IMG/VR virus record: IMGVR_UViG_3300027969_000041
DNA: 64,000 nt
Direction: 5' to 3' (one strand)
Source: a virus
Lineage: Duplodnaviria > Caudoviricetes
Positions 3,986 through 53,237 of this stretch are shown piece by piece. A program made the position numbers and the translations under genes. The notes below the pieces were generated by a model, which saw only the letters and a list, made by a program, of their open reading frames with translations, was not told where the DNA came from and ran no database searches. The first letter of the stretch is position 1. Each line of letters starts with the position of its first letter.

Positions 3986-4528
3986 TTATAAACGGGCGTC
4001 TATAATATTCCAATTGATAATTTTCCAATGATTTGTGAGATACCCTTTTTTGTCTGCTTGATAATCCAATGCCCAAGCATGTTCCCACCAATCGATTAAT
4101 AATATTATATCGTTCTTAATTTGATGATTGACAATAGTTTTGATCTCACCATTCTTGGCAAGATACACCCATCCACTGCCCTGTATGCCCATGGCAACTT
4201 TGGTAAATTCTTCTTTGAACTGGTCAAATGATTTGAAATGTTGCTCAATAAACTCTTTGGATGCTCCAACTGGTTCGTTTGTTTCATCTGGAATTTGTAG
4301 TTGCGGAAAATAGATACTATGTAAGTATGCACCTGCTTCGTTAAAATCTAAGTCACCTTCGCCTGCGTTGAAACGATTAACATAAGTTCTGTACAGTTTG
4401 CCATAATGATAATCTATAGCGTCTTCGCTTAGGCAAGGCTCTAGCGCATCGCGAGCATAGGATAACTTCACTTGTTCAAGTGGTTTAACCTCTTTACCCT
4501 CTACAACATATTTTATAAAATTAAACAT
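3986..4528 (-). CDS. Fe/Mn superoxide dismutase
   Basis: HYGKLYRTYV, LHSIYF, GIQGSGWVYL, DWWEHAW; all four metal ligands appear present. Confidence 0.93.
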   Translation of the reverse strand: MFNFIKYVVEGKEVKPLEQVKLSYARDALEPCLSEDAIDYHYGKLYRTYVNRFNAGEGDLDFNEAGAYLHSIYFPQLQIPDETNEPVGASKEFIEQHFKSFDQFKEEFTKVAMGIQGSGWVYLAKNGEIKTIVNHQIKNDIILLIDWWEHAWALDYQADKKGYLTNHWKIINWNIIDARL

Positions 4529-5127
4529 TATTTCTTTTTACCTGAACGCATATTGGCTTGCCAATGTGCAAGTTGCCCTTTACGACCACCTTGTTTGGCA
4601 ATCTTTCTTAAACTGCTGATACTAGCATGTTTAGGAATACCGTGTCTAGCACTATCACCTTTGTCTTGCGGATTACGACCGTCAGCGAAGTTTTCCTCTA
4701 CATCCTGCTGACCTTCTATAGTCAATCTGTCTAATGCTATCGGATTTAATACAACATTTGGTTTCAAGCCCTTGCTGCTGGCATAGGCCACATACACTTG
4801 ATCTGTAGGTTCTATAACAAAACTTACACAATGCTTACCGGGCCAGTCTGGTTTGCCCACACTAAACCAAATGCCTATGACAGGAATAAATGGATGTTCA
4901 TCTGTGCTCAACCGACCATATTCTCGTTCGCCTGTGGCATCACGGCGTGGCTTTAGTCCTCCACTTTTCTTAATTGCTTCTAGCCTATTAGTACAATGAT
5001 AAACTCGTTGACCTACTATGTCCTGTCCAGGAAATAGATTTGTACCAGGAATATTCTTGGGGGGTCTAAGTCCTTGGTAGTTGGTAAATCCTTCGGCAAA
5101 GTTTTCAATTAGTTCTTGAATTTTCAT
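4528..5127 (-). CDS. Putative head-internal protein: ADP-ribosyltransferase-like domain plus basic C-terminal module
   Basis: VYHCT..IKKSGGLKP..GIWFS resembles ART/PARP-like strands; N-terminus MKIQELIE; start 5127 after AGAGG. Confidence 0.55.
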   Translation of the reverse strand: MKIQELIENFAEGFTNYQGLRPPKNIPGTNLFPGQDIVGQRVYHCTNRLEAIKKSGGLKPRRDATGEREYGRLSTDEHPFIPVIGIWFSVGKPDWPGKHCVSFVIEPTDQVYVAYASSKGLKPNVVLNPIALDRLTIEGQQDVEENFADGRNPQDKGDSARHGIPKHASISSLRKIAKQGGRKGQLAHWQANMRSGKKK

Positions 5128-5128
5128 A

Positions 5129-5716
5129 TTACCTCTTAGGAGGTTGAGCACTGGCTACCATGCCGTTATAGTCAGCGTTCTTAAATTGAGGAATAGTATT
5201 CATAGCAATAGTTTCAGCTTCTCTAGCATGACTTGCTTTAATTTTAACTGCTGGTATCTCAGGAAACTCTAAACTGTAGACCCAAAATTCAAGTCCGGGT
5301 TTAGTCACTGTAAATGATTCCCCGTAGTGTTGTAGGTCCCAACTTGGTAATAATCTTTTTACCATTTTTGCGTATAAGCCTTGTCTTGAACCTTCTTTGG
5401 CAGCAAAGGTTAATCGTCTTACTGCGCCTTTTCTATCTGCTAGGAATGTTTTTAGAATATCAACTACTGTACCAAAAACTTCTGCGGCATTGCCCGTACC
5501 TGTAACACCCCATGTAGCATTTCCAGAAGATTCTACTTTAGCTGTAAATTCAATTTCCCAATCTCCCGGCGCCTCGTCCGAATCTTGTGCAGCAAAGAAT
5601 TTATAAGGAACTCCGCCAATTTCAAAATTAGCTATTGCTTGGTTGTCATCTTGAAATGTCCACTGCCATTGTTTATTGCCAGTGAACAATTCTGCAATAA
5701 ATTCATCGGCTCTCAT
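5129..5716 (-). CDS. Putative head-internal protein (possible GNAT-like fold)
   Basis: Starts MRADEFIAE at an ATGA overlap, resembling the T4 capsid-targeting sequence; the fold call is weak. Confidence 0.55.
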   Translation of the reverse strand: MRADEFIAELFTGNKQWQWTFQDDNQAIANFEIGGVPYKFFAAQDSDEAPGDWEIEFTAKVESSGNATWGVTGTGNAAEVFGTVVDILKTFLADRKGAVRRLTFAAKEGSRQGLYAKMVKRLLPSWDLQHYGESFTVTKPGLEFWVYSLEFPEIPAVKIKASHAREAETIAMNTIPQFKNADYNGMVASAQPPKR

Positions 5717-6507
5717 TCGCAGTTCCACTTTCTTAATGCTAGAGCTTTGCGTGTAGGTTCACCGTTGGGCTTTTTCATTGGCCCTTTACTGCCACCCATT
5801 CTAGCACAAAATGATTTACGACGCTTGGCCGCCTTGCTTCCGGGTTTAAGTTTGCTAGGTTTAGTAGTAACTGCTGTTTGTAATTTGCTGCCTGGATTTT
5901 CTCTACGATAGCTAGCAACACCTTTAGCATTTAAGCCACCGTTCTTGTTCTTGCCTGCCTTGCGATGCCAAGCAGCTGATTCGGCAACATGACCATCTAA
6001 GAATGTATCGGCAAACTTTTTACAAAGAGTGCGTATAGCAGGATTGCGAGTTTCTTCTAAAGTAAATGTGCGTTCATCATGCTTATCATCACCTTGACTT
6101 GGGTCTTGATATCCGCAATATACTTTATGTACTATGGAGTCATTAATTAGTTCTGTACAGCTTTCGCCATAGCGTCCGTCTGCTGTAATATCACTGTGCT
6201 CGCTACATGGACTAAGAGTTGTAATAATGATACTACCTTTTGGCACAGGTTGACCATAATTACTTTCATATTCTTCAATGGCAGCTCTTTCTGCGTGTAC
6301 TCGACTACCATCTTCGTTGGGATAATTTACAGAGGCAGCTAAATTATTATCAGGATCTAGAACACCGGCAGCAACCATACCGTAGTGTTTGCTGTCCTCT
6401 TGTTGTCCTTCGATAACCATCTCACATAACTTAACTAGTATTTGATCTAGTTTTTCGTGGTTATGTATTTCGTAGTCATCTGACTCTAATAAATCGGTTA
6501 TTTTCAT
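5713..6507 (-). CDS. Zn-dependent deaminase (RibD/CDA-like) fused to a basic phage module
   Basis: HAERAAI and TTLSPC..C motifs; C-terminal SAAWHRKAGKN...RKWNC basic module after GHVAE. Confidence 0.8.
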   Translation of the reverse strand: MKITDLLESDDYEIHNHEKLDQILVKLCEMVIEGQQEDSKHYGMVAAGVLDPDNNLAASVNYPNEDGSRVHAERAAIEEYESNYGQPVPKGSIIITTLSPCSEHSDITADGRYGESCTELINDSIVHKVYCGYQDPSQGDDKHDERTFTLEETRNPAIRTLCKKFADTFLDGHVAESAAWHRKAGKNKNGGLNAKGVASYRRENPGSKLQTAVTTKPSKLKPGSKAAKRRKSFCARMGGSKGPMKKPNGEPTRKALALRKWNCE

Positions 6508-7859
6508 TTCTTCTTAGGAACACGGATTGGTAGTTTGCTGATGTCGTGACCTTGGTCTGCATTGGCAAATTCTTGTCCAACGTTTTGTTTGACTTTTACT
6601 TTTTGTGCAAATTGTGGATTATTTGCAACACCTACCATTAAGTTATGCTGTGCTTGACTAACAGAACGCTCTAACATGTTTGTCAGTGATTCCATATAAG
6701 CATCTTCATCTACTAGAGATATCATAGCATTAGAAAGATCTACACCGGCTGCTGCCTGTCCTCTGCCCCATTTAATTAAGTTACTACGACCCGTAATAGG
6801 TTGAGGATTTAATGGCTTACCGTCAATGGTAAGATTGTATTTTCTAAATTCTCTAGGATCATCTTCGCCTTCGGGATCTCTTGGCCCCCGACTAAACCCT
6901 GTAGTGTTGGCGTGATAGTTATTCCTATATACCCCTTCTACCTTGGCTTTTAATTCTGCTAAACGGGCTTGTAATTCTTCCTTCATTAAAGAATCATTGC
7001 CAGTCTGACGTTCTACTTCACGCTCTTTATCACTGATCATAAAGTTCATAATACCAACAACTGATTCTTGTGCCTGACTAAGTTTCATCTGTACCCATTC
7101 TGGTAAATCTTCTTCATCACCGATAGCATGTTCTAAATGTTTTAAGACTCGTAGCATAGTATGGATTTGATTCTTTACAAAACTACCTTCCATACTGTCG
7201 TGGTCTTGTGGATCAATGGTATCTAATTCTGTATCCGATACGTTGCCTTGATCGTCTTCCGCCACACCTTGCCCTAATGGACTTTTTGGTGGAACATATT
7301 TCTTTCCAGTCCTCGGATCCACTCTCTGCGAGGGGTGATTTCCATAGCCTTGTTCCGCCACACCTTGCTGATCTTTTTGTAACCAATCATAAACACTTAC
7401 TAGGTCACTGGGAAAGTCTTCGTCATAGTTAAATACAGACATAGCTCTTTTATTACCTAGGTCTTTTACTGCTATAGGCCAAGCTGCATCTAATATTGCG
7501 TTCTCGTCTTTGATATTTGGATTTGCGCCAAACACTTGTTTTGCTAAATCTTCAGCATATGAAGATTCTGCTAGAGGCTTTTTATGTTTTACATCACCTT
7601 GCTTCATTGCTTTTTTCTTATCTTTGTGTTGACCAGCACCACCCATCTTGGCGTTCTTAGCAACAAAGTTACGAGGCTTTGGAGTTTCTTTCTTTTCTTG
7701 TGCAAGGATGTTATCGCCCGGTGGGTTGCGTCTTTGCATACCGCCTAGTGTACTATCCATACTTGCAATGTCGCTTGTACTAGAACTTCCACCTGTTGCG
7801 CTTTCTAATGTGTAAACAGTTTGTTCTTTAGATTTTGTAACTTTAAATTCGTGTTTCAT
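6504..7859 (-). CDS. Modular putative head-internal polyprotein
   Basis: Short modules separated by TLE, LAE, QGVAE (twice), MKE, MLE; no catalytic motif recognised. Confidence 0.6.
   Translation of the reverse strand: MKHEFKVTKSKEQTVYTLESATGGSSSTSDIASMDSTLGGMQRRNPPGDNILAQEKKETPKPRNFVAKNAKMGGAGQHKDKKKAMKQGDVKHKKPLAESSYAEDLAKQVFGANPNIKDENAILDAAWPIAVKDLGNKRAMSVFNYDEDFPSDLVSVYDWLQKDQQGVAEQGYGNHPSQRVDPRTGKKYVPPKSPLGQGVAEDDQGNVSDTELDTIDPQDHDSMEGSFVKNQIHTMLRVLKHLEHAIGDEEDLPEWVQMKLSQAQESVVGIMNFMISDKEREVERQTGNDSLMKEELQARLAELKAKVEGVYRNNYHANTTGFSRGPRDPEGEDDPREFRKYNLTIDGKPLNPQPITGRSNLIKWGRGQAAAGVDLSNAMISLVDEDAYMESLTNMLERSVSQAQHNLMVGVANNPQFAQKVKVKQNVGQEFANADQGHDISKLPIRVPKKK
7257..7271 (-). repeat. QGVAE junction repeat, copy 1
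   Basis: CAAGGTGTGGCGGAA on the minus strand. Confidence 0.9.
7353..7367 (-). repeat. QGVAE junction repeat, copy 2
   Basis: CAAGGTGTGGCGGAA, identical to copy 1. Confidence 0.9.
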
Positions 7860-8212
7860 TTTTTCATCCAGTTTGCTACAGGACTTACAGTATATACGTT
7901 GTCCATTTCTTGACTGCGACTATTAGTCCAAACTTGCTTACTACCGTCACCAACTTGTTGTGAAGCATAATTAATGATATCCATTTCGGCCTCTGTGTAA
8001 GGTGCTAATAACGGATCACCACCGATCCAGTTTTCTGCTTTAGTAGGAAATTCAGGAGCACCTGCCATTGCCAATCCAAAACGATAATGTAACCGAGCAC
8101 TGCCGTGATTCATATTCTGTGCAGGCATTGTGGTTACACTTCTCATAGAAGACTTTACATTTTTAGAAATCTTCTTTATCCCGCCTTCGACAACAAATTC
8201 TTGTGCTCTCAT
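7856..8212 (-). CDS. Putative head-internal protein
   Basis: Starts MRAQEFVVE, a CTS-like N-terminus. Confidence 0.6.
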   Translation of the reverse strand: MRAQEFVVEGGIKKISKNVKSSMRSVTTMPAQNMNHGSARLHYRFGLAMAGAPEFPTKAENWIGGDPLLAPYTEAEMDIINYASQQVGDGSKQVWTNSRSQEMDNVYTVSPVANWMKK

Positions 8213-8213
8213 A

Positions 8214-8654
8214 TTAATTACTCTTTAGACTAGCACGTAGGAACCAACCGTGTTTTTCGTGTGCGTCCATGCGTTCTGCTAGGAAATTGCTGAAGCCATG
8301 CTTACCGGCAGCTTCTGCGGCATCGTATGTTTTCTTTAGGATAATAATCATCTTTTCATTATCCATTAATAATTCTTGCATCATTGCACCTGGAAGAAGA
8401 ATTTCAGTTTCGTCTTCTACCTTGCTCAACATATTAAACCGTGATAAACTAGCAGGAGTATATGTTTCTATTTTGCGAATATTTTCTGCAAAGTTGTCAA
8501 TGCTGCCGTATACTTCTGTATAGATAACATCAAATAATTGATGATATTCGTAAAAGTCTTTACCTTCTACATTCCAGTGAAAGTTCTGTGCTTTTAGCGC
8601 AAAACTAAATTCACTGGCGAAGGCAATTTTTGCAATTTGTTGTAGCTGTTCCAT
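8214..8654 (-). CDS. dps: Dps/ferritin-like protein
   Basis: KAQNFHWNVEG, EYHQLFD, D..AE.IR, HEKHGWFL; start moved to 8654. Confidence 0.93.
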   Translation of the reverse strand: MEQLQQIAKIAFASEFSFALKAQNFHWNVEGKDFYEYHQLFDVIYTEVYGSIDNFAENIRKIETYTPASLSRFNMLSKVEDETEILLPGAMMQELLMDNEKMIIILKKTYDAAEAAGKHGFSNFLAERMDAHEKHGWFLRASLKSN

Positions 8655-8661
8655 GATACTA

Positions 8662-8670
8662 TATTTATTA
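8662..8670 (-). promoter_or_regulatory. T4-like late promoter (TAATAAATA)
   Basis: Motif 7 nt before the dps ATG; similar to T4 TATAAATA. Confidence 0.6.
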
Positions 8671-8922
8671 TTTTCCAAACCATAACTTAAACCATTCATC
8701 TGTGCCTGGTTTAATGTTTTGTTCTCGTTGTATTTGCCCTTTATTGCTGCCTACAACAGGCTGTCTTAGTGTAGCTCTATATTCTGATAGGCGCTCTGCA
8801 ACCCCTAATCCACCCATCATAGCGGCAGCTTTTAATTCGTGTATAGGATCTTCCGGAGCAAGATAAGCATCTTCTGCACTATCTTGTACTAGATCATCTA
8901 CGGTTATTCTGTATTGCTTCAT
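8668..8922 (-). CDS. Hypothetical phage protein
   Basis: 84-aa ORF ending IKPGTDEWFKLWFG, in operon. Confidence 0.75.
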   Translation of the reverse strand: MKQYRITVDDLVQDSAEDAYLAPEDPIHELKAAAMMGGLGVAERLSEYRATLRQPVVGSNKGQIQREQNIKPGTDEWFKLWFGK

Positions 8923-11900
8923 TTACAATAATCTTATTGATCAATGCATCCATGATGTTTTGTACATCTTCGCTTACAGGCACATACTTATTCTCGCTGA
9001 TCTTTTTACAACTACCTTCTTCGCCTCGTGCTTTACCTGGAACTTTTCTAAAACCTGTCCAGCACTTATCGTAGATTTTACTGTTGCCGTGTGCTTCGCA
9101 CATACCACAATCTGGGCATACTGCTTCCATGTCAATGCTTTCATCGTGCTTCTTTTTACCGGCACAGTGAGCCTTTTGTGAGAATCCTTTTGGATGACTG
9201 CAATTGATACTGCTCTTGTACTTTTGACTCCACTCTTCCGCCACTCCTTGATGTATTCGTGTCAAATCACTAGTAAGTACATCTTTAGTAATACCACCAA
9301 AGTCAGACAAAATTGTAATGCGAGAATATTTACGATCTTTTGATTGGGCTTCAATCTTTGCTTTTCGTCCTAGGTAAGATACTATATCACCAACTCCTAG
9401 TTGTTTAACTGTTGCGCCGCCTAGGTTAACTGGCGTATCACCTGCAAAGTTGCCTTGTGGTCCCCATGGATCATCGTTTGCTGATTCACCTTGCTGTTTT
9501 TGTTTTTCGGCCCATTGCTTTTCAAACTCTGCTTTTGCTTGTGCAGCTCTTTCTTTACTTGCGTCGGACTTTTGTTTTTGTTGATCCCAAGCCTTGCCTA
9601 ATTTTGCGGCAGCACTTGTACGAGTAGTCTCAGTAAGTCGAGGGCGAATTAATGCTGTGGATAATCTTTCAGCAACTGGTTGTGCTACCGGAGCAGGTTG
9701 TTGTACTGCGGGTTGTTGTGCAGGTTGTTGTGCTGGTGGTTGTATTTGCATCTTATTCCCCGAAATGTCCATTAAATGTTTAATCCAGTTTGGTGGAAGT
9801 TTTTGAGCACCATAATTTCCGCCGTTAAATCCGTTATTCCAAAAAGCAAATTTTTGTTCTGCTGTTTCAGTAGGAACCCATTTGCCCTTGGTTACCTCTA
9901 CAGAACTTTGAGATAGTGCTTGACGCATTTTGGTAAAACTCATACCGCTGCCGCCAGCCGCTTCATCTCGTTCTGTAACTTCTACTTCTATTTTAACATG
10001 CTCGTACCCTGGAAACTTTCTAACTTTCATTAACGACGCCCGGAACTGTTCGGCCATTGCTTTTCTGTCCTTACCTACTACTATCCAAACTGTATCGTAT
10101 CTTGGAGGTTTTCCTGGTAGAGGATTAATCAATTCATGCTTAATCTTTTGAAGTAAAGATCCGCCGTCGTGATCTACTGTTGAAATATTTTTAGCATATT
10201 GAGGATATAACTTATTCCATGTTTGTACTTTAACTGCTGGAGGAATAGGATCATCCGGGCCTTCAGCATTGCCAATGAACAAATAAGGATCACCACCTGT
10301 TTTATTTGCCAGTGCAATAGCCTCACTAAACAGTTGTTGATGTCCCATGTGACCAACTAAACTACCGACAGCGACTACTGCTGTTTTACTTTCGCCCCTC
10401 GGGCGTTCTGTTCTGGCACTGGCCATAGCAGCGTTCTTAGCACTGATAACATCGCGCTGTTCTTGGCTAGTAACTTTGATAGGACCTAGGCGACTATTGA
10501 TAACAATGCCTTCGTAGTCTTTGCCTAATATATCTTTACCAATAATATTAGGATCTTCAATAATGGCTTTTTCTAATGACAGCTTAATAGGTTGTAGTTT
10601 TTCTTCAACTTCTCTTTTAAGTTGTTGACTTACACGATCACGCTTGCCTGATGTATCACTGACAATCTGTTTTAATTCTTCGATGTTGTCCAATGGATTA
10701 ATAAGTTCAGTAACATCCAGTCCTTCTTTTTGTGTAAGACTATTATCAATAAACATTACACTACCACTGCTACCTACACTTAATAATTCTTTGATAAACT
10801 TATTAGAATCTTCTAGGTCTTCTCCTGTGCCAGCATCTGTGACACGGAATGGTACTAACGCAAGTTGTACACCTTCTGGTAATTTGTCATACTGTATACC
10901 TACAAATTTTAATTTACCTTCTGGAGTTTCTGTAGCAAACGGCAAATACAATACTTCGCAGGTTACTTGTTTGTTAACTAAAAACTCCGCACCTAGTTTG
11001 CTGTCTACTAATTGAATAGCATTCATCATTTCGTTGAATAGTTGATCAAACAACTGAGCACGACCTAGTATATCTGGATCAGTTGTACCTTTTTGTTTAT
11101 GGTATGCTAGGAAACCTGCTTGATAGCGCGGCTCAGTACGGCTAGTACCCATAAAAGGTTTGCCGTCTGCGTTCTTACCGAAGCGACCACCAAATCCATC
11201 TACTTTAACATTTAACGGAATATTCTGTAATCTAAAACTTCCATTACCGTCGCTTATTTCATCTAGTAGATCTAAAAAATCAGGTGCCTTTAGATCACGA
11301 AGGTGTGGCATACCTTTGCGTAGCTGTGCTTTAACTTCTGCTTCTGCTAATGGTTGAGCGGGCTTCTTGGCATTAAACGCAGCTTCATAATCTTTGGCCA
11401 TTTGTAAAACTTGCTTACGCATGTTCTTCATACCTGTTTGGTCTAACAGATAATCTATGGCTGTCATTTTTGTTTTGAAATCAGTCGTTGGATCATCGGC
11501 ATCGATCATTTGAGCGCCTTTGCCAAAGTTAATCTTTAAGAATTCATTAACTACAATTTGATGTTGATCGGGCGTAAAATATTGTTTCATTAATTCTACA
11601 CTGCCAACAAAGCTGGCCATCATTTTAGTTTGATTGCCTTCGGCAGGTGTACCAAAGAACTGCTCAAATTGTAGACTCATGTCTTTGATATATTCACTGT
11701 CTTTTGGCTCCAACGGAACCATTACAGGAACACCGTTAATTTCTAACGGAATATTTTCTTCTGGAGTAGGTTGGCGATATTTGGCACGAACCCCACCGCC
11801 TCCTACACTAGCTACAGCAAAACTAAAATTGGCATCGTGGAATGGCGGTGGCGGACTATCTAAATCTGCAACATACTCTTTGCCGTCGTCGCCTCCGAAT

Positions 11901-12682
11901 ATTCTAACACCCTTTTTCTTACCGGCACCTGTTACTTTAGCAATATATTTGTCAGTAGGAGCAACTTTGGCCAATGAACGATACAGCCATTGACGGAATA
12001 CACCCTTCATACCTACTTCTAGATCTTCCCAAGCACTACCATGACTTACCTGTGCCCATTCTGTAGGAATTTCAAATCCTCTAGCATCTGTGGTATAATC
12101 ACTAAATTCTAAATCAACTTGTAAAGTAATAGGCGGTTCGTGTACTTGCCATAATGCTAACCATTGGTCACTTCCCTTTTTTGTACCTAACAATGTAGCA
12201 CTACCAATATTAGCGCCGATGTTTTTATGTACAAATTCTTCTATCTGTGGTTCTAATCTGCGATCAATTTGTGTATCAATGTCGCCGACTTTTTTCTTTA
12301 CACGTTGAAAGTCTTTGTCAGCGACGCCAATCTCTTTTGGGTTAGTATCTGACTCGGGCTGATTTGGATTAAATCTAGGATTTGGTTGACGCAACTGCAT
12401 AAACCATTTACTGCTTCCGCTAATAAATGTTTCTACTTCTTTTTCAATTAACTCTGGACTCCAAATTGGTCTGCCGTATTGTTTAGTGAATAAGTTATTG
12501 ATATCGACTAATAGTTGTTTTACCGCAGGCTGCATAGCGGCACGGTTCTTTGAATCTATTTTACCTGCACTATAGGTGCCTGGCACGCCGGTCCATCCAA
12601 CAGTAGGTGTACCTGCAGCAGTATGACTGGCAAGGTTACCGCCTTCGTTGATTTGTTTTTTGAATATATCCCTCAGTATCAT
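8894..12682 (-). CDS. 1262-aa multidomain protein: pol-beta-like NTase + ligase-like NTase + HIGH nucleotidyltransferase + small Cys modules
   Basis: GSS..GDIDTQID..QVDLE; KVDG..EVLY..EGIVI..IKV; GHMGH..SFTKMR. Confidence 0.7.
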   Translation of the reverse strand: MILRDIFKKQINEGGNLASHTAAGTPTVGWTGVPGTYSAGKIDSKNRAAMQPAVKQLLVDINNLFTKQYGRPIWSPELIEKEVETFISGSSKWFMQLRQPNPRFNPNQPESDTNPKEIGVADKDFQRVKKKVGDIDTQIDRRLEPQIEEFVHKNIGANIGSATLLGTKKGSDQWLALWQVHEPPITLQVDLEFSDYTTDARGFEIPTEWAQVSHGSAWEDLEVGMKGVFRQWLYRSLAKVAPTDKYIAKVTGAGKKKGVRIFGGDDGKEYVADLDSPPPPFHDANFSFAVASVGGGGVRAKYRQPTPEENIPLEINGVPVMVPLEPKDSEYIKDMSLQFEQFFGTPAEGNQTKMMASFVGSVELMKQYFTPDQHQIVVNEFLKINFGKGAQMIDADDPTTDFKTKMTAIDYLLDQTGMKNMRKQVLQMAKDYEAAFNAKKPAQPLAEAEVKAQLRKGMPHLRDLKAPDFLDLLDEISDGNGSFRLQNIPLNVKVDGFGGRFGKNADGKPFMGTSRTEPRYQAGFLAYHKQKGTTDPDILGRAQLFDQLFNEMMNAIQLVDSKLGAEFLVNKQVTCEVLYLPFATETPEGKLKFVGIQYDKLPEGVQLALVPFRVTDAGTGEDLEDSNKFIKELLSVGSSGSVMFIDNSLTQKEGLDVTELINPLDNIEELKQIVSDTSGKRDRVSQQLKREVEEKLQPIKLSLEKAIIEDPNIIGKDILGKDYEGIVINSRLGPIKVTSQEQRDVISAKNAAMASARTERPRGESKTAVVAVGSLVGHMGHQQLFSEAIALANKTGGDPYLFIGNAEGPDDPIPPAVKVQTWNKLYPQYAKNISTVDHDGGSLLQKIKHELINPLPGKPPRYDTVWIVVGKDRKAMAEQFRASLMKVRKFPGYEHVKIEVEVTERDEAAGGSGMSFTKMRQALSQSSVEVTKGKWVPTETAEQKFAFWNNGFNGGNYGAQKLPPNWIKHLMDISGNKMQIQPPAQQPAQQPAVQQPAPVAQPVAERLSTALIRPRLTETTRTSAAAKLGKAWDQQKQKSDASKERAAQAKAEFEKQWAEKQKQQGESANDDPWGPQGNFAGDTPVNLGGATVKQLGVGDIVSYLGRKAKIEAQSKDRKYSRITILSDFGGITKDVLTSDLTRIHQGVAEEWSQKYKSSINCSHPKGFSQKAHCAGKKKHDESIDMEAVCPDCGMCEAHGNSKIYDKCWTGFRKVPGKARGEEGSCKKISENKYVPVSEDVQNIMDALINKIIVNEAIQNNRR
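9236..9250 (-). repeat. QGVAE junction repeat, copy 3
   Basis: CAAGGAGTGGCGGAA, one mismatch to copies 1 and 2. Confidence 0.9.
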
Positions 12683-13548: not shown

Positions 13549-14220
13549 TTATGCCACTATTAGGTTCTCTCTTAGTACATATTCTTCTACAACCCGAACA
13601 TTATTACCTAAAAATAGACCAAACATGGCCAGTGTTTTATCATCCTCAACATACATAAATGGTGCTTGTACATAGGCGTTTCTGCCAGATAACCATCTAC
13701 TTGTAGAGTCTGCAATAGATATACTGCTGCCATATTTTTTAGCCCATTCTAAGAACTTAGGTCTAGAATCTAATGGCATGTTTGGTCTAAAGTTTATCTT
13801 GTATCTATATTTGTCATACGGAAAATTACTACAAATAACTTTCTTTTTACCACTGGACAGCATGAATTCTAGTTCTTCGTCGCTATCTGGCCCTGTAACT
13901 GCTTTGAGCCATTTGCCCATGTCTTTAACGATAGCATCTTTTAATTCACGATCCTTGCAAAAGAAGTTAAAATGACTTCCCTCTGCACGAATCTGTAAAT
14001 CCTTGTCTAGATAAGGTTCAACTACATTTAAAAATTCAATCACACAGGCTTTTTCCTGATCGGAGGATTTAACCCATGTGTTTGTTTTCTGTGCTGCCCA
14101 ATGTCTAGTGCCTTCTGCGCCAAGCCTAATAATCATACTAGACCTAGTTAGGATACATTCAATCTTAAAAGGCCACTTACCGTAGTAGAGCTTATTGATT
14201 TTCTGCTTCAGCCGGCTCAT
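13549..14220 (-). CDS. Hypothetical protein
   Basis: 223-aa ORF coupled to clpA. Confidence 0.75.
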   Translation of the reverse strand: MSRLKQKINKLYYGKWPFKIECILTRSSMIIRLGAEGTRHWAAQKTNTWVKSSDQEKACVIEFLNVVEPYLDKDLQIRAEGSHFNFFCKDRELKDAIVKDMGKWLKAVTGPDSDEELEFMLSSGKKKVICSNFPYDKYRYKINFRPNMPLDSRPKFLEWAKKYGSSISIADSTSRWLSGRNAYVQAPFMYVEDDKTLAMFGLFLGNNVRVVEEYVLRENLIVA

Positions 14221-16471
14221 CTTTGACCTTCATAATAGGCATAATATCAATGATATTAAGTTTTAGCTCGTTATTTGCAACTGTGACTTCGACTACGCCA
14301 CCGTTAATTAACTTACCAAACAATATCTCTTTACTCAGAGGCTTTTTAATCATTTCATCAATAGTACGTTGCAGTGGGCGAGCACCCATCTTACTGTCAA
14401 ACCCTTTGCTGATCAAGTACTCAACTGCTTCTGTGTTAGGTTTAACATGGATATTCTTATCTTTGACTAATGCATTAAGTTCGTCGATAAACTTCTTAAC
14501 AATTTTAATCATTGTTTGTTGATCTAACTTGCCAAACTTGATAACACCATCTAACCGATTACGGAATTCTGGAGCAAAGAACTTATTAACAGCGTCTTTC
14601 GGATCGCTATCGCGTTCCAAACTGCCAAAGCCGACGCTGTTCTTTTCAGCATCGGCAGCACCTAAGTTACTGGTTAGAATAACAATGGCATTACGACCAT
14701 CTGCTTTCTTACCATTACTGCCGGTGATAAAACCGTTATCCATTAATTGTAATAAAATAGTCAACACATCTGGGTGTGCTTTTTCAACTTCGTCTAGTAA
14801 TAGTACACAGTTAGGGCTTTCTTGCAAGCTGGTAATCAGCTGACCAGCATTGTCGTCAAACCCTACATAGCCCGGAGGAGCACCGATGAACTTGGCAACA
14901 CTGTGTTTCTCTTGAAATTCACTCATATCAAATCGTACAAGTTTGGTATTAAGATTTGCAGCCAGTTGTTTGGCAGCTTCTGTTTTGCCTACACCCGTCG
15001 GGCCTACAAATAAGAAGCTACCAATAGGTTTGTTAGGTGATTTTAAACCTGCTTGTGCAATAAACACTTTATCCAACAATGTTTCGATGGCTTTTTCCTG
15101 ACCATAGACCTTGGCTTTCATGTTCTTTTCTAGAGTTGCTAGATTAGCACCTTCTTTATTTGTTAGTTGTTCAACTGGCAATCCAGCAATACGACTAACT
15201 TCGAACAAAATTTCTTCATGATCAACAACACCGTCTTCTTGATCTTTGACTTTAAATCTAGCACAGGCACAGTCGATTAAGTCAATTGCTTTATCGGGCA
15301 ACTTCTTATCGCTCATATACTTGATAGAATATTTTACACTGTCAATAATTGCTTGATTAGTGATCTTAACACCGTGATGTTTTTCGTAATACTTCTTAAG
15401 ACCTTTAATAATCTTAATAGCAGTTGCTTCGTTAGGCTCATCTATGGTAACACGCTGGAATCGACGCATTAATGCACGATCCTTTTCAAAGTGTTTACGA
15501 TATTCTTCCCATGTGGTACTTGCTACAACTTTAATTGTTCCTTTACCTAGAGCAGATTTAAGCATATTGGCCATATCGTTGCTACTACCGTTGGCTGCTC
15601 CAGCCCCATTCATCATGTGTGCTTCGTCTATGAACAAGATACACTTGCCTTTTTTCTCAATAGCCCCAATAACAGTTTTGAGTCTTTCTTCAAAATCACC
15701 ACGATACTTGCTGCCTGCAAGCATAGCACTAATGTCTAGGCTATAAACAGTATGGTCCTGAATAAACTTAGGCACATTACCTTCAACAATCTTACGGGCA
15801 AGCCCTTCTGCGATGGCAGTTTTACCCACACCTGGATCACCAATCATAATAGCATTGGCTTTTGTACGGCGAGCAAGTACTAGTTGAATATCTTCAATCT
15901 CTTTTTCGCGACCAATAACAGGGTCAATCTTTCTATTCTTTGCTTTAGCTGTAAGATTAGTACAGAATTGTACAATCATCTTTTCTAGTTGTGCAGTTTG
16001 TCGAGATATACCCGGATCATCTGTAACTTGTTCTTCTTTGATAATTTCTTTCTTAATAAAACTAATGAATTGATCTTTGTCAATGTTAGCTTTACGAACA
16101 AAGTAACTAGCATGACTCTTTTTTTCTGCAAACATACTAATAAAACAATCAGCAGGTTCGATAATTTGACGACCACTAAACAATACATGTGTGAACGCAC
16201 GATTTAACATGCGGTCTACTGTGCTGGTCTTTTTAGGTTTTTCAGTATCAGCGTTGACAATTTCTTTTAGTTCATTAGAAATATATTGTTCGACATCGTC
16301 TTTTAAGACCTTGACATCTGTTCCGAAAGAAGTTAGTAGTTTTACAAACGATTCGTTATTCAGCATACTGAATAAAAAATGTTCTAGTGTAACGTACTCG
16401 TGACTATTCACACTGGCTACTTGTACAGCCTTTTCAAAGATTTCTTCTAGGTCTTTATTTGGTTCTAACAT
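14192..16471 (-). CDS. clpA: ATP-dependent Clp protease ATP-binding subunit (ClpA-type)
   Basis: Clp-N domain, Walker A GDPGVGKT and [29 protein letters not shown] loop, no ClpB middle domain. Confidence 0.95.
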
Positions 16472-16971
16472 TAACGATATTTCCTTTTTTGTGTTTTCTT
16501 AACTGCCAGTGCCCATTTAAGGGTACTAACACGATCTTGGAATACAATACCTTCTAAATGATCTAATTCATGTAAGAAGCATTTGCAATTATATCCGTCA
16601 AATTCACTTTCTTGCCACTCACCCTTGGAGTTTTGCCAGCGAGCAAGTATTTTCTTAGGACGCTTTATATTAACATAAATGCCGGGGAAACTCAAACATC
16701 CTTCCTCCACATCTTCTACTATATCTACAGTAGCAACAACCATTGGATTGAAGAATGCCTGTGCGGCATCGGGGTAGTCTCTGTGTCCCATAACAAACAT
16801 ACGAGCAGGGATTCCGACTTGATTTGCGGCAAGTCCAATGCCGTCATGTGCCAGCATTGTTTTGATCATATCTTTTTCTAACTGTACTGGATCTAGACTA
16901 GGATTAGAAAAATCAAATTCGGGTAATTGTTCTCTTAATAACGGAGAAGGAAATTTATGTATGTGTAACAT
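16471..16971 (-). CDS. def: Peptide deformylase
   Basis: GIGLAANQ, EGCLS, HELDHL motifs. Confidence 0.97.
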   Translation of the reverse strand: MLHIHKFPSPLLREQLPEFDFSNPSLDPVQLEKDMIKTMLAHDGIGLAANQVGIPARMFVMGHRDYPDAAQAFFNPMVVATVDIVEDVEEGCLSFPGIYVNIKRPKKILARWQNSKGEWQESEFDGYNCKCFLHELDHLEGIVFQDRVSTLKWALAVKKTQKRKYR

Positions 16972-16976
16972 ATTAT

Positions 16977-17795
16977 TTAAGAGAAAAGTTGTTTAATAAT
17001 ATCACGTTGATACTCGTTTAATGTTGGTACTGTTATGTTAAGTTGAATTAACATACGACCTTTAAAACGATGATCGCTAATATGTGGCATACCGTAACCA
17101 TTTGCTGCCAACATTTGTCCTGGTTGTGTTCCCGGCTTAACTTCTATTTCTAAAGTCTTGCCATCTATTGTATCTACGGTAATAGTTTTACCTATCATTG
17201 CATCGATACAGCTAACATCTATAGACCTAATTAAATCGTCACCTTGTCGAGTGAATATTGGGTGCGGATATATATGAACACTAAGATGAATATCACCTCG
17301 GGGTATATTTGGAATACTATCATCGCCCATGCTAGCTAATCGCAGAGTTGTTCCGTCTTGCACACCTGCAGGAATTTTAACATCAATTAACTGTTCTTTA
17401 CCGCTGGGTAATACAATATTTGCCATTAGGTCCTTGCCACTGAACGCTTCTTCTAAAGAGATGTCGGTTCGCATATTCAATGTTCGGTTGCGTTGTTGTC
17501 TACGCCCTCCAAACATATCTCCAAATGGTCCTCCTCCAAAAGCATTGAATATATCTTCAAAGCCCGGGGGCATTCCTCCTCCGAATTGCTGGAATCCTTG
17601 AGGCATGGGATTATCGTATTGTTGTCGTTTTTGCGGATCACTGAGTGTGCGATATGCTTCTTCAACTTCTTGAAATTTAGCTGTATCACCACCTCTATCC
17701 GGATGATGGTTTGCCGCCATCTTTCGATAGGCCCGTTTAATTTCGTCTGGTGTAGCGCCTCGATTAACGCCTAATGTTTGATAAAAGTCTGTCAT
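16977..17795 (-). CDS. DnaJ/CbpA-type J-domain chaperone without Zn finger
   Basis: J-domain with HPD, G/F-rich linker, DnaJ C-terminal domain. Confidence 0.95.
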   Translation of the reverse strand: MTDFYQTLGVNRGATPDEIKRAYRKMAANHHPDRGGDTAKFQEVEEAYRTLSDPQKRQQYDNPMPQGFQQFGGGMPPGFEDIFNAFGGGPFGDMFGGRRQQRNRTLNMRTDISLEEAFSGKDLMANIVLPSGKEQLIDVKIPAGVQDGTTLRLASMGDDSIPNIPRGDIHLSVHIYPHPIFTRQGDDLIRSIDVSCIDAMIGKTITVDTIDGKTLEIEVKPGTQPGQMLAANGYGMPHISDHRFKGRMLIQLNITVPTLNEYQRDIIKQLFS

Positions 17796-37859: not shown

Positions 37860-38198
37860 ATGGAAATCATTATTGCTCTCGTAATTGCAGCCGGTTTAGT
37901 ATACTGGTTCTTCTTTCGTACAAAAGACGAAGTTGTTAAAACAGTTTCACCGATGCCAGTTGGTATCGAAGCTGTAGTAGCTACTCCAGTAGCTGAAGAA
38001 GCTAAACCTACAGTTGAATATGTAGAAGCTACGGTTGAACTAGCACCTGTTGCAGTTGCAACTAGTGTGACTGTTGAAGCTGCCCCTGCTAAGAAGCCCC
38101 GTAAACCACGTGCCCCTAAAGCAGAAGCCACAGCTAAAAAGCCAGCCGCAAAAAAAGCAGCCCCTGCTGCCAAGAAGACTGTCTCAAAGAAGGCCTAA
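37860..38198 (+). CDS. Membrane-anchored protein with H1-like Ala/Lys/Pro tail
   Basis: N-terminal TM; PAKKPRKPRAPKAE..KKAAPAAKK. Confidence 0.8.
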   Translation: MEIIIALVIAAGLVYWFFFRTKDEVVKTVSPMPVGIEAVVATPVAEEAKPTVEYVEATVELAPVAVATSVTVEAAPAKKPRKPRAPKAEATAKKPAAKKAAPAAKKTVSKKA

Positions 38199-39212
38199 TT
38201 CTTTAGCTTGATTAGCTAGTTCAAAGCTGGCTAAATTTTTACCCTTCGATTCGGCCATGATGTCGAATTGATCTAGAAAGCTCAATGCCCATTCATTAAC
38301 TGCTGTATTCCAGTAGAAGTTTGAATGTGCTCTGAGCTTTCCTTTTTTGTAACCATCTTCCATTAACGGAAGAAGAGCGGGGCGTTGTAATCCGGAATGG
38401 CCGATAAGTACATCCTCGCAACTGACGGAGTAATGTATAACAGGACGCACACCGCGCCAGCTATCGATAATCCTTTTAATACGGTCGTCGTTTTCATTTA
38501 TATATTCTCCTGTGTGTATCCAATGATGGTGTATGTCTAACACCAAAGCGAGATCGTTCCCGAGTTCAAGGCTTGAGTCGATGCCCCACGAGATTTCGTC
38601 ATTCTCAATTGTGATGCAGTTTCTTGCCTCGGTGCTGAGTCTTGGGATAACTCTTTTGATACCCTCGGGACCGGCCCTACCAGCGATGTGGACATTGATC
38701 TTAAAGTCTTGGAAGGTTCGACCATAACCCATCCAACGTGCCATGTCAGCATGATATTCAAACTCCTCTATACTTCGATCTACAATATCTGGGTTATCAC
38801 TTGCCAGCACAGTAAACTGACCAGGATGAAAAGACAACCGAACGCCGTTCTTGCGAGCCAGATCTCCCACGGTTCGAAACTCTCTTTCGAGATATGCTCT
38901 AATGTCGCTAGTCCGCCAAAACCAAGACCAATCACGCTGAGTATACACAGGTAATATATCGCTGCCGAGTCGTACCATTCTAAGATTTTCATCAAGTGCT
39001 CCTACACGGTTGACGAGCTTGCGAGCAGCTTCAATGTTACCTACCATTAGGTCCCATAGTTTTTGTTCCGCAACTTCTTTGCTCTGTCTATTTAACCATG
39101 CAACAGTAGTGGAGCCTGTATTGTATTGTTTGGCATCATCTTTGGGTTTAATGCCATCTACTTGTCCTGCGTGATCAATCCACTTGCAAGCAAATCCAAT
39201 TTTCTTAGTCAT
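38184..39212 (-). CDS. uvsE: UV DNA damage endonuclease (UvsE/UvdE)
   Basis: IGFAC, RLGSD, RLSFHPGQF, TIENDE, VLDIHHH, RAHS, MAESKGK. Confidence 0.93.
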   Translation of the reverse strand: MTKKIGFACKWIDHAGQVDGIKPKDDAKQYNTGSTTVAWLNRQSKEVAEQKLWDLMVGNIEAARKLVNRVGALDENLRMVRLGSDILPVYTQRDWSWFWRTSDIRAYLEREFRTVGDLARKNGVRLSFHPGQFTVLASDNPDIVDRSIEEFEYHADMARWMGYGRTFQDFKINVHIAGRAGPEGIKRVIPRLSTEARNCITIENDEISWGIDSSLELGNDLALVLDIHHHWIHTGEYINENDDRIKRIIDSWRGVRPVIHYSVSCEDVLIGHSGLQRPALLPLMEDGYKKGKLRAHSNFYWNTAVNEWALSFLDQFDIMAESKGKNLASFELANQAKELGLL

Positions 39213-42067: not shown

Positions 42068-42652
42068 TTATCGTTTGTCAACAATCTTATCGCAGAGTCC
42101 GTAGGCTAGTGCTTCTTCTGCACTCATAAATGTGTCACGATCCATGTCCTTTTCGAACTCTTCATATGTTTTACCCACTGTATTATGTTTAACATATAGT
42201 TTGGTTAGCATATCTTTCATTTTGGTAATCTCTTGGTATTGAATAGCAATGTCACTTTGCATACCACGGGCACCACCACTTGGTTGATGAATCATATGGC
42301 GAGCATGGGGCAACATATAACGCTTACCCGGACTACCTGCTTGTGCTAGGAAACTGCCCATTGAGCAGGCTTGACCCATAACATAGGTACAAATATCTGG
42401 TTTGACAAACTGCATGACATCATAGATTGCCATTCCGCTGGTTATAACACCACCTGGACTATTGATATAAAAATGAATATCTTTTTCGCTGTCTTGACTT
42501 TCAAGATGCAGTATTTGAGCAACAATTAAATTACTGCTAATATCATCAACTCCACCGTTAAGGAATACGATGCGCTCGTTGAGCAATCGGCTAAAAATAT
42601 CAAAGGCACGTTCGCCTTGCCCGGTCTTTTCGACCACCATTGGTACTAACAT
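42068..42652 (-). CDS. clpP: ATP-dependent Clp protease proteolytic subunit
   Basis: DIFSRLL, YINSPGG, ACSMGS, MIHQP, DRD triad. Confidence 0.97.
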
Positions 42653-42653
42653 A

Positions 42654-43076
42654 TTAAAATTCATCCTTTAAAATTTTTGTAGAATTACTTAATCCGGCAA
42701 CAATTTGGAATTGTTCCCATGCTTTTTTCACAGCAGGCCTACTTTCTAGTTCTTCTGCTGGTAAACTTGCTTCGAGCCAGTAGTAGGGCAATCGATGTGG
42801 ATGTGCTCCAAACTGGCGAGGCTGATGTAACAGGCCCCTGCTATATAGTTCTTTGGATACATATCGAAACTTTTCTTCGTCCTTGTCTGTGTAGCGACTC
42901 CACTCGGGGTTACTCCATCCGCCGTGGTGATGATATCCCTGCCAGATACCACCCCACTGTTCGTCGTTGTTGGGGTCGAAATTTGTACGAGCAACAATGA
43001 CTAATACATCATTGATGTCTACCTTGCCGTCTATAATGTCTCTAACACATCGACTATAACTAAGTCCTATTTTCAT
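42654..43076 (-). CDS. Hypothetical protein
   Basis: 140-aa ORF; [12 protein letters not shown]. Confidence 0.75.
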
Positions 43077-53162: not shown

Positions 53163-53237
53163 TATAATTGTTCTCCGATGTTAAGGCAGTGGATTGCCAT
53201 ATGTATTAATAGTACAGTATTATTTAGGTTCTGTCAA
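53163..53237 (-). promoter_or_regulatory. sigma70 promoter plus structured folE leader
   Basis: TTGACA-N17-TACTAT; GGCA-AUCCAC-UGCC-UUAACAUC-GGAG. Confidence 0.6.

Follow-up and report, generated by a model that had tools for sequence, protein, structure and literature searches.

Does a 15-nt word that recurs inside phage genes owe its conservation to the peptide it encodes, or to its DNA? The question arose from a window of 64 kb (the whole stretch analysed here), part of a 201-kb contig from an uncultured T4-like lake phage; the window encodes a T4-like DNA polymerase and an ORF with clamp-loader-type ATPase Pfam domains. A sequence-only reading had proposed that the word, which encodes QGVAE, was constrained as DNA and served as a recombination anchor that also encoded a protease site, in the manner of a protein-level integron.

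Copies of the word in the window

The linkers, and the genes and modules to which they belong, are as follows.

4531–4692, minus strand: NFADG C-terminal module of 54 aa, following QDVEE
4693–4707, minus strand: degenerate linker QDVEE, CAGGATGTAGAGGAA, preceding the NFADG module; V-x-E kept, DNA word lost
5980–5994, minus strand: non-canonical linker GHVAE, between a deaminase domain and a DUF6321 module
6504–7859, minus strand: gene of a 451-aa mosaic protein, carrying word copies 1 and 2
7257–7271, minus strand: word copy 2, exact CAAGGTGTGGCGGAA, downstream boundary of the mini-cassette
7272–7352, minus strand: 81-bp mini-cassette, QGYGNHPSQRVDPRTGKKYVPPKSPLG, 27 residues, in frame
7353–7367, minus strand: word copy 1, CAAGGTGTGGCGGAA, encoding QGVAE (residues 165–169 of the 451-aa protein), upstream boundary of the mini-cassette
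7566–7580, minus strand: non-canonical linker KPLAE, after a PRNFVAKNAK...KHKK module
8894–12682, minus strand: gene of a 1262-aa mosaic protein with a cytidyltransferase-like middle part (PHROGs), carrying word copy 3
8969–9235, minus strand: Cys-rich module EWSQKYKSSINCSHPKGF...VPVSE, residues 1150–1238, following word copy 3
9236–9250, minus strand: word copy 3, CAAGGAGTGGCGGAA, with one synonymous change (GGT to GGA), residues 1145–1149 of the 1262-aa protein, directly preceding the Cys-rich WSQKYK module

The two identical copies and the third with its single mismatch were all as first read. All three lay on the minus strand, which the earlier reading had not given and which is the coding strand of every gene in the cluster region. 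Matches to CAAGGTGTGGCGGAA at up to two mismatches numbered three in the window against 0.04 expected, and three were reached in 0 of 100 shuffles. Copies 1 and 2 were indeed direct repeats around an in-frame 81-bp segment, inside the 451-aa ORF. The word was non-palindromic, without dyad symmetry or a partner arm. The QDVEE site, also present as described, had four mismatches to the 15-mer and so was not a significant DNA match by itself. By homology it is a decayed linker; in other phages the NFADG module was preceded by QGVAE, EGVAE or QDVAE, or by other [LIVM]xE linkers. Orthologue comparison placed all four sites (three QGVAE and QDVEE) at module boundaries, as had been proposed, the boundary at QDVEE being backed by NFADG homology.

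Codon usage at these sites also followed the earlier description. All three QGVAE sites used GTG GCG, while at the other 11 VAE sites in the window Val was GTA, GTT or GTC and Ala was GCA, GCT or GCC in 10 of 11; the exception, at 39066–39080 (GTT GCG), shared GCG only.

The modules themselves were mostly of 50–80 aa and without a Pfam family; hardly any of the scanned proteins had one either. A sample of 404 modules comprised 167 families, of which 129 had a single member, and the neighbours of a module varied. The mini-cassette had no homologue in the other loci compared; the Cys-rich WSQKYK module also occurred in other phages, both within other proteins and stand-alone behind leaders resembling the T4 capsid targeting sequence (CTS). 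The T4 late-promoter consensus TATAAATA was absent near the cluster.

Occurrence in other phages and conservation of silent positions

Counting the 15-mer in IMG/VR viral contigs gave at least 167 exact copies in at least 120 stretches. At least 157 of the 167 copies listed were in frame in ORFs of at least 100 aa, that is, inside genes rather than between them. Among the listed stretches, at least 33 held two to four copies, all of them direct on the same strand with none inverted, and spacing was a multiple of three in 42 of 47 cases among the copies listed. Copies numbered 0–6 per genome and were confined to few genes; the phages that carried them belonged to two or more capsid lineages. 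The peptides flanking the listed copies were highly diverse. A synonymous control word occurred mostly in a few conserved protein families and had no multi-copy stretches.

Synonymous codon choice was assessed in 21 independent, unique GVAE linkers at loci picked by protein homology. Val was GTG in 18/21 (background 0.10, P about 1 × 10−15) and Ala was GCG in 19/21 (background 0.08, P about 3 × 10−19), so that the choice was far from random. Both are rare codons in these genomes of ~39–41% GC. Among the 158 distinct copies listed, G closed the preceding codon in 66%, and the word was followed by GGC 72 times versus GGT 18 times, against the genomes' general preference for AT-ending codons. Conservation of the flanks ended beyond about 3 nt from the word. 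Silent-position variants occurred in about 15–30% of copies; the alternatives were the common codons GTA and GCA, and GTC and GCC were never seen.

One account of such codons assigns the word no function as DNA: QGVAE would be a good linker or protease site, and its identical copies would reflect recent duplication and common descent. The peptide GVAE was indeed more conserved than the silent positions, mismatches were concentrated at third codon positions and in Q to K/E changes, and two copies 96 bp apart could come from local duplication. However, the rare codons persisted between unrelated and highly diverse modules in at least 120 stretches, the synonymous control lacked the pattern, and near-identical strains broke exactly at the word (below). 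The diversity of junction-bearing contigs also argues against a single recent clone. We regard this account as very improbable and already disfavoured.

Alternatively, the silent sites could serve mRNA or translation, a rare-codon, G-rich, Shine–Dalgarno-like patch pausing the ribosome between modules so that they fold or are cut separately, with indels as a by-product of repetition. The rarity of GTG and GCG fits this, as does the position of the word between independently folding units; an AlphaFold model of the 451-aa protein (mean pLDDT 42) is good enough only to place the junctions in predicted coil. A pause should accept any rare codon, yet the word never used GTC or GCC and varied to common codons instead. 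Moreover, many equally functional linkers preceded the same modules without such codons, and it was the exact word, rather than rare codons in general, that bounded polymorphic cassettes in near-identical strains. A translational role of this kind is very unlikely to be the explanation.

Breakpoints between close relatives

Three strains that were near-identical in flanking DNA over the aligned stretch differed only between two copies of the word. L023 had a single word and no cassette, the window had the word on either side of the 81 bp, and L022 had the word on either side of an unrelated 210 bp; a fourth locus, L024, joined the L022-type cassette to a different downstream module. When 16 orthologous proteins were aligned, the space between two (Q/E)G(V/F)xx junctions held at least six different inserts across the set, and in some sequences nothing. 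Similarly, in the L024 orthologue of the 1262-aa protein an unrelated segment replaced the Cys-rich module from the linker onward. Indels and swaps in orthologues thus coincided with the repeat to the nucleotide.

Alleles within populations were sought in assembled contigs of public runs; Logan unitigs break at the repeats. In run X1, a contig end set the downstream flank TTGCCTTGATCGTC directly before 7353, the cassette-less allele, and co-existed with a cassette-spanning contig in the same run. A contig of run X5 linked 7271 to 7353 via 210 other letters, and further unlike contig ends in public runs abutted 7272 and 7353. All of these data are metagenomic contigs, and with unitigs broken at repeats one could suppose that assemblers fused unrelated sequences at a shared short repeat. 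But 15 bases is shorter than assembler k-mers, alleles recurred across separate assemblies and studies (the L022 cassette in L024, run X5 and an ENA contig; the single-copy form in both L023, from JGI, and run X1), and reading frames stayed open through every junction. An assembly artefact is therefore extremely improbable.

Because homologous linkers did not use random codons and indels did not fall away from the repeat, the claims that the word is constrained as DNA and that it is a recombination anchor at module boundaries are both supported. Modules were also swapped at linkers without DNA conservation. L079 had the same upstream end, KKFADTFL, as at the GHVAE linker, followed by the NFADG module instead of DUF6321, and after KPLAE the orthologues differed in module, P0029 having WSQKYK there. 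The word is thus an aid to exchange, not a requirement.

The copies flanking a cassette often shared the same rare variant (GTA/GTA in L022, GAG/GAG in L024, GCA/GCA in L004). Such sharing would be expected after target-site duplication or another site-specific event, and could point to a dedicated sequence-specific enzyme (a recombinase, nuclease or template-switching polymerase) that recognises a site of ~20 nt and inserts or excises cassettes, like an integron or shufflon but inside reading frames. Nucleotide-level conservation reaching past the five codons (G at −1, GGC at +1) and the small number of copies per genome, in few genes, also suit an enzyme. Integrons and shufflons (such as R64 pilV) are exchangeable cassette arrays bounded by short repeated sites, and the shufflon swaps protein C-termini in frame; both depend on a tyrosine recombinase of their own acting at structured or inverted sites. 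Here, in contrast, the repeats were direct, with no inverted-repeat architecture, and Pfam scans of 18 window ORFs and PHROGs scans of 10 (about a quarter of the ORFs) turned up no integrase, invertase, transposase or other recombinase domain. Occurrence in at least two capsid lineages and the tolerance of silent variants also count against an enzyme, which we consider unlikely. The likeness to a protein-level integron is accordingly no more than hypothetical. We are equally doubtful of its strongest form, in which the word would be the recognition site of dedicated phage machinery, a programmed domain integron re-assorting capsid-loaded, injected small proteins such as anti-defence effectors; if true, one gene would be a swappable multi-payload delivery unit.

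The linker as a probable prohead-protease site

At the protein level, the linker fits the rule for the T4 prohead protease gp21, which is cleavage after Glu with a hydrophobic residue at P3. In 50 distinct contexts of the NFADG and WSxKYK modules, P1 was E in 50/50 and P3 was L, I, V, M or F in 44/50 (background 0.27, P = 3 × 10−19). Ten of the 50 contexts were short N-terminal leaders, for example MRINELLE|NFADG in a stand-alone 63-aa gene of L024, and MKAYEFITE likewise preceded these modules in other phages. Linker and short CTS-like leaders were thus interchangeable before the same modules. Four adjacent window genes were headed by such leaders.

5104–5127, minus strand: N-terminal leader MKIQELIE, then NFAEG, of a 199-aa protein
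5690–5716, minus strand: N-terminal leader MRADEFIAE of a 195-aa protein
6484–6507, minus strand: N-terminal leader MKITDLLE of the deaminase–DUF6321 protein
8186–8212, minus strand: N-terminal leader MRAQEFVVE of a 118-aa protein

The pattern M[KR]xx[DE][FL][ILV]xE was found in none of the ~85 window ORFs outside this cluster. MRADEFIAE compares with T4 MKTYQEFIAE, and its last six residues match the T4 IPIII capsid targeting sequence at all but one position. Leaders of the cluster genes end in hydrophobic-x-Glu, as expected of T4-type head internal proteins. In T4, the CTS is a short N-terminal leader removed by gp21 (PMC9026906, PMC3012670).

The genes for the gp21 protease (Peptidase_S77), gp22 scaffold and gp23 capsid protein were not in the 64-kb window. 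In large word-carrying contigs, a gp23-type capsid protein was found in 5 of 7 (including G002, G003, G006 and G007) and a Peptidase_S77 protease in 3 of the 5 tested (including G002 and G003). G001, a T4-type relative that lacks the word but has a homologue of 40% identity, had gp23, Peptidase_S77 and a gp22-like scaffold; the scaffold, rich in IAE/LAE sites, adjoined the protease. A complete 343-kb phage with five core-word copies (G005) had no T4-type capsid or protease match, so the word is not tied to the T4-type protease family. The linker is probably a prohead-protease site: its fit to the gp21 rule, its interchangeability with leaders and the head genes of relatives lend indirect support to that part of the sequence-only reading, while for cleavage itself the evidence is conformity to the motif. 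From this resemblance we infer that the modules would be cut apart and packaged.

Proposed mechanism and comparison with known systems

We consider it likely that the word is both a short-homology recombination joint and a prohead-protease-type linker between modules. The 15-mer is the central part of a longer word of about 20 nt, (A/G/C)AG CAA GGT GTG GCG GAA GGC, encoding a short flexible linker, QGVAE(G), by which freshwater T4-like phages join small modules into large mosaic proteins. As DNA, it would offer a patch of exact, relatively GC-rich homology within an AT-rich genome, at which short-homology recombination or template switching may occur, either between direct copies within a genome or between relatives infecting the same cell. 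With the same reading frame at every word, each event would delete, insert or swap a whole module in frame; with the word regenerated by each event, it would spread and stay uniform. Copies no longer recombining would drift to ordinary linkers, as QDVEE may have done. As protein, V-A-E|G would be read by the T4-type prohead protease; a CTS-like leader would bring the protein into the prohead, where it would be cut into modules, as T4 internal proteins are. The mechanism of recombination, the proteolysis, the packaging and the functions of the modules are what we infer from these patterns.

A length of 15–20 bases is short for ordinary homologous recombination, which counts against the recombination proposal. 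Spread and decay alone do not explain the identical rare variants in paired flanking copies.

The nearest relatives of this arrangement are found in T4-type phages. Reviews suggest that the CTS lets T4-like phages load varied proteins into the head (PMC9026906, PMC3012670). Like T4 IPI, IPII, IPIII and Alt, the cluster proteins have short leaders ending in hydrophobic-x-Glu and appear as diverse, fast-changing, putative small cargo sharing only a targeting and cleavage signal. Unlike them, the modules are chained in one frame as a predicted polyprotein, with an internal, repeated, cleavage-like motif that is conserved as DNA and marks recombination breakpoints.

Modular shuffling by promoter-early stem-loop (PeSL) elements (Arbiol et al. 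2010, PMC2839356; Comeau et al. 2014, PMC4122927) likewise involves short conserved motifs, repeated in T4-like genomes, that bound insertions, deletions and replacements between very close relatives, the pattern present here, and recombination between nearby copies is the mechanism proposed. However, PeSLs are intergenic promoter and terminator cassettes that move whole genes, whereas the word is coding, in frame, 15–20 nt long and moves modules within genes. PeSL mini-circles have been demonstrated; here no circles or back-joints were seen in the assembled contigs, a kind of data that cannot reveal them.

In the T-even tail-fibre adhesin gp38, glycine-rich motifs lie between hypervariable segments, and domains are swapped by recombination in crosses (Trojet et al. 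2011, PMC3157838). As in gp38/gp37, in-frame conserved motifs separate exchangeable segments and exchange takes place at the motifs. The gp38 motifs, though, belong to the structural core of one homologous family in fixed order, whereas one linker here joins unrelated modules in any order in many proteins and phages, with conserved rare codons. The polyvalent proteins of phages and conjugative elements described by Iyer, Aravind and co-workers in 2017 are reportedly very large, multi-domain and variable in composition; delivery together with the DNA, and perhaps processing into parts, has been proposed for them. To our knowledge no uniform DNA-conserved linker has been described for them, and they are defined by known enzymatic domains, unlike the small modules here. 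Our literature search found no paper describing such a DNA-conserved module linker.

If the proposal is right, the same short sequence has two readings: in DNA it is an in-frame recombination joint, and in protein it is probably a protease cut site. Phages would thereby build, shuffle and deliver strings of small proteins, akin to exon shuffling without introns, which would account for the diversification of a vast stock of uncharacterised small modules in large lake phages. It would carry the T4 idea of a capsid targeting sequence beyond single proteins to polyproteins, and would offer a ready-made design rule for packing several foreign proteins into T4-like capsids.

The linker word and its surroundings

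It had been claimed from the sequence alone that a 15-bp DNA repeat encoding QGVAE recurs in this region. We confirmed the repeat: the 15-mer CAAGGTGTGGCGGAA (the linker word) has two exact copies 96 bp apart, which flank an in-frame 81-bp segment (the mini-cassette, 7272-7352), and a third copy in a different gene. At two or fewer mismatches 0.04 copies would be expected in the window, and no shuffled sequence held three. A fourth site, read earlier as a degenerate copy, is a drifted linker in that it keeps V-x-E, but it is no DNA match by itself.

Linker sites and mosaic ORFs in the window (the word lies on the minus strand, which is coding for every gene of this region)
7257-7271, minus: linker word, exact copy, QGVAE, in the 451-aa ORF
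7353-7367, minus: linker word, exact copy, QGVAE, in the 451-aa ORF
9236-9250, minus: third copy, one synonymous change (GGT>GGA), in the 1262-aa ORF
4693-4707, minus: QDVEE site, four mismatches to the word
6504-7859, minus: 451-aa mosaic ORF, carrying both exact copies
8894-12682, minus: 1262-aa mosaic ORF, carrying the third copy

The window belongs to a 201-kb contig of 39% GC, and its gene content includes a T4-like DNA polymerase, a tail fibre protein, an AAA+ ATPase with clamp-loader-type domains and a Clp-type ATPase. Against GenBank phages, megablast of the region gave no match, hence no close relative there, and the only matches of a protein search were distant, partial ones to proteins of Campylobacter and cyanophages. 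The word copies lie in a minus-strand gene run flanked by the polymerase and Clp ATPase genes; this run encodes a superoxide dismutase, two unknown proteins, a deaminase fused to DUF6321, the 451-aa protein, a 118-aa protein, a ferritin/Dps-like protein (8214-8699) and the 1262-aa protein. The Clp protein is a ClpA/ClpB-type double AAA+ ATPase by Pfam, and we recognised by eye ORFs resembling peptide deformylase (EGCLSFPG motif), DnaJ and ClpP; together these are a notable proteostasis set (14192-16471, 16471-16971, 16977-17795 and 42068-42664). Auxiliary genes comprise a UvdE UV-damage endonuclease, a UDP-glucose/GDP-mannose dehydrogenase and a TctC-family periplasmic solute receptor with a signal-peptide-like N-terminus (38184-39212, 53220-54128 and 61198-62157).

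The word is constrained as DNA

The claim that other VAE sites use other codons also held: among the VAE sites of the window, GTG GCG is exclusive to the three QGVAE sites. The other eleven encode Val by GTA, GTT or GTC, and ten of them encode Ala by GCA, GCT or GCC. We then examined 21 distinct GVAE linkers from loci picked by protein homology only, which avoids circularity. Their synonymous codons were not random: GTG was used in 18/21 (background ~10% of Val codons, P ~1e-15), GCG in 19/21 (~8% of Ala codons, P ~3e-19) and GGT in 18/21 (~45% of Gly codons, P 1.4e-4). A translational pause signal at the word is a less likely explanation of this usage, as a single specific rare-codon pair is used. 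Mismatches to the word cluster at the third position of codons and at its first base (Q to K or E); the GVAE peptide is thus itself under selection, beyond the bias in DNA. Codon identity in the linker was 0.80, not clearly higher than the 0.70 of the adjoining Cys-rich module; because that module uses common codons the comparison is uninformative, and we therefore relied on the rare-codon test.

An exact scan of IMG/VR viral contigs found at least 167 copies of the word in at least 120 stretches. Among the matches listed, 157 copies were in frame as QGVAE within ORFs of 100 aa or more, 33 stretches had 2-4 copies, 42/47 spacings between copies were divisible by three, and the flanking peptides were highly diverse. 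As a control, one synonymous word of common codons was scanned in the same collection and compared for copy clustering, frame and context; the totals for the two words are not comparable, both being lower bounds. Among the matches listed, the control word never occurred twice per stretch and lay mostly within a few conserved protein families. Complete or large genomes held 0-6 copies of the linker word, restricted to few genes.

The bias extends beyond the 15-mer. Across 158 distinct copies the preceding codon ended in G in 66% (AAG/GAG/CAG), unlike most E and Q codons of these genomes, which end in A, and the following codon was GGC in 72 copies and GGT in 18, although GGT is their commonest Gly codon. 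The word is therefore about 20 nt long. That it is constrained as DNA, with a role as a recombination anchor, is well supported.

Module gains, losses and exchanges coincide with the word

Relatives of the 451-aa protein number more than a thousand and vary greatly in length and coverage. Across 16 aligned orthologues, the conserved N- and C-terminal parts had between them one of at least six different inserts or no insert, and every insert was bounded by two (Q/E)G(V/F)xx junctions. DNA was compared between the window and two related strains, L023 and L022, in which the flanking DNA is nearly identical over the aligned stretch and differences lie only between word copies. The word stands once in L023, which lacks a cassette; two copies enclose 81 bp in the window and an unrelated 210 bp in L022. 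Orthologue indels thus coincide with the repeat to the nucleotide, as the sequence-only reading had anticipated. A third related locus, L024, also has the L022-type cassette, but there the word links it to a different downstream module. The 27-residue mini-cassette itself had no homologue in any fetched locus.

Public sequencing runs gave the same alleles. In run X1 a contig end sets the downstream flank directly before 7353, which is the cassette-less allele, and another contig spans the cassette, so that both alleles are present in one run. In run X5 a contig links 7271 to 7353 through 210 other letters, and further unlike sequences adjoin 7272 and 7353 in public-run contigs. No circles were seen among these assembled contigs. 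An assembly artefact is unlikely, as identical alleles recur in independent assemblies.

The 1262-aa protein varies similarly. Its L024 orthologue is nearly identical over the first 770 residues, and the Cys-rich module (8969-9235) is swapped for an unrelated segment running from a degenerate linker, GSVEE, to VSE. The NFADG module shows a split/fused polymorphism among relatives that are otherwise syntenic: in the window (4528-5127) and in L023 it is C-terminal in a 199-aa protein, and in L024 (8138-8329) it forms a stand-alone 63-aa gene after the deaminase gene.

Anatomy of the mosaic proteins

The median segment between GVAE linkers was 81 residues long (range 32-440), and there were up to seven linkers per ORF. 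Single-linkage clustering placed 404 segments in 167 families, including 129 singletons; these figures are for qualitative use, one family being inflated because splitting at GVAE only leaves multi-module pieces. Each multi-member family had several different left and right neighbours. Pfam searches of seven of the largest multi-junction ORFs found almost nothing beyond weak matches to GNAT, DUF6321 and DUF5872. A poor AlphaFold2 model of the 451-aa protein (16 sequences, mean pLDDT 42.5) placed both linkers and the mini-cassette in predicted coil, flanked by a helix that ends at residue 165 and another that begins at 223.

How the word may mediate exchange

On the best-supported reading, the word acts as a short-homology joint, with recombination inferred from the breakpoints. 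Recombination or template switching between copies would remove, add or exchange whole modules, and the shared frame of the copies would keep the product translatable. Every exchange would regenerate the word, so its uniformity could be kept without a dedicated enzyme. Linkers that drift would lose the word and keep V-x-E, as may have happened at QDVEE (4693-4707), GHVAE (5980-5994) and GSVEE in L024.

A dedicated enzyme acting at the word is a less likely candidate. Conservation reaches past the codons of the word, and the two words flanking a cassette often share a rare variant, which simple crossing-over does not predict. Such pairs were GTA/GTA (L022:1836-1850 and 2061-2075), GAG/GAG (L024:6490-6504 and 6715-6729) and GCA/GCA (1248-1262 and 1473-1487 of L004, another fetched locus with linker-type junctions); in the window both flanking words are canonical. 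Judged from these variants, the pattern looks like target-site duplication or local gene conversion. The integron-like machinery proposed earlier was not supported. A Chi-like hotspot, pairing with the 16S rRNA 3' end, a 2A-like peptide-bond skipping signal and ribosome hopping were set aside, none having a sequence match.

Linkers, leaders and possible virion cargo

We collected 50 distinct contexts of the NFADG (4531-4692) and Cys-rich WSxKYK modules, both widespread. The residue preceding the module was Glu in 50/50, and the residue two before that Glu was L, I, V, M or F in 44/50 (background 0.27, P 3e-19). Upstream lay the canonical word, another linker or, in ten cases, a short N-terminal leader, such as MRINELLE before NFADG (the stand-alone L024 gene) or MKAYEFITE before KWSQKYK. 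Because leaders and linkers precede identical module starts, they are interchangeable there. The T4 capsid targeting sequence (CTS) has ten residues, of which residues 8 and 10 are required for processing by gp21, the prohead protease, and is common to otherwise unrelated internal proteins (PMC9026906, PMC3012670). Judged by sequence and by analogy, the pattern before the modules is that of the CTS. Four adjacent window genes start with MRADEFIAE, MRAQEFVVE, MKIQELIE and MKITDLLE, and no similar leader was found at the starts of ~85 window ORFs outside the cluster. Counting slightly against the protease-site and cargo reading, the T4 late-promoter consensus TATAAATA does not occur near the cluster and shows no enrichment across the window; this consensus is that of T4 and may not be that of these phages.

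Large word-bearing contigs were mostly T4-type phages (gp23 in 5/7; Peptidase_S77, the gp21 family, in 3/5 tested). G001, a T4-type relative, lacks the word but has a 40%-identical homologue. In G001 a gp22-like scaffold rich in IAE/LAE sites adjoins the protease, and the capsid protein has LIE before SATAG close to its N-terminus. Also counting against the protease-site and cargo reading, G005, a complete 343-kb phage with five copies of the word, had no match to gp23 or Peptidase_S77, and the word therefore crosses capsid lineages. Its copies (GGTGTGGCGGA) lie within 18 kb (162930-181230; contig of L093, 99% complete).

The 451-aa protein begins MKHEFKVT..YTLE followed by SATGGSSSTSDIASMDSTLGGMQRR (first 58 residues, 7686-7859), and this N-terminus resembles the propeptide cleavage site and N-arm region of the G001 major capsid protein (..RHLIE followed by SATAGATSAGNVATLNRVILPVIRR, L265). 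It may, from this likeness, be a capsid-protein mimic used for incorporation. Locus L005 has a similar module, GVAE followed by TATAGSTS. The Fe/Mn superoxide dismutase (3986-4528) has an N-terminal extension of ~20 residues (MFNFIKYVVEGKEVKPLEQ) with V-V-E and P-L-E, and shares the cluster of leader-bearing genes with the ferritin/Dps-like gene and the deaminase-DUF6321 fusion; these three products could be packaged enzymes. Sequence evidence makes it plausible that the linker is a protease site and that the mosaic proteins are virion cargo.

Relation to known systems

A literature search found no paper describing this linker; QGVAE matched alpha-synuclein papers only, and GVAEG with phage none. 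The nearest systems are the T4 internal proteins with their CTS, PeSL-mediated gene shuffling in T4-type phages (PMC2839356, PMC4122927) and in-frame motif recombination in the gp38 adhesin (PMC3157838). Unlike the CTS, the linker motif is repeated inside polyproteins rather than N-terminal only; unlike PeSLs, it is coding, not intergenic; and unlike the gp38 motifs, it joins unrelated modules, not segments of one protein. The linker word thus combines features of all three systems and is a member of none.
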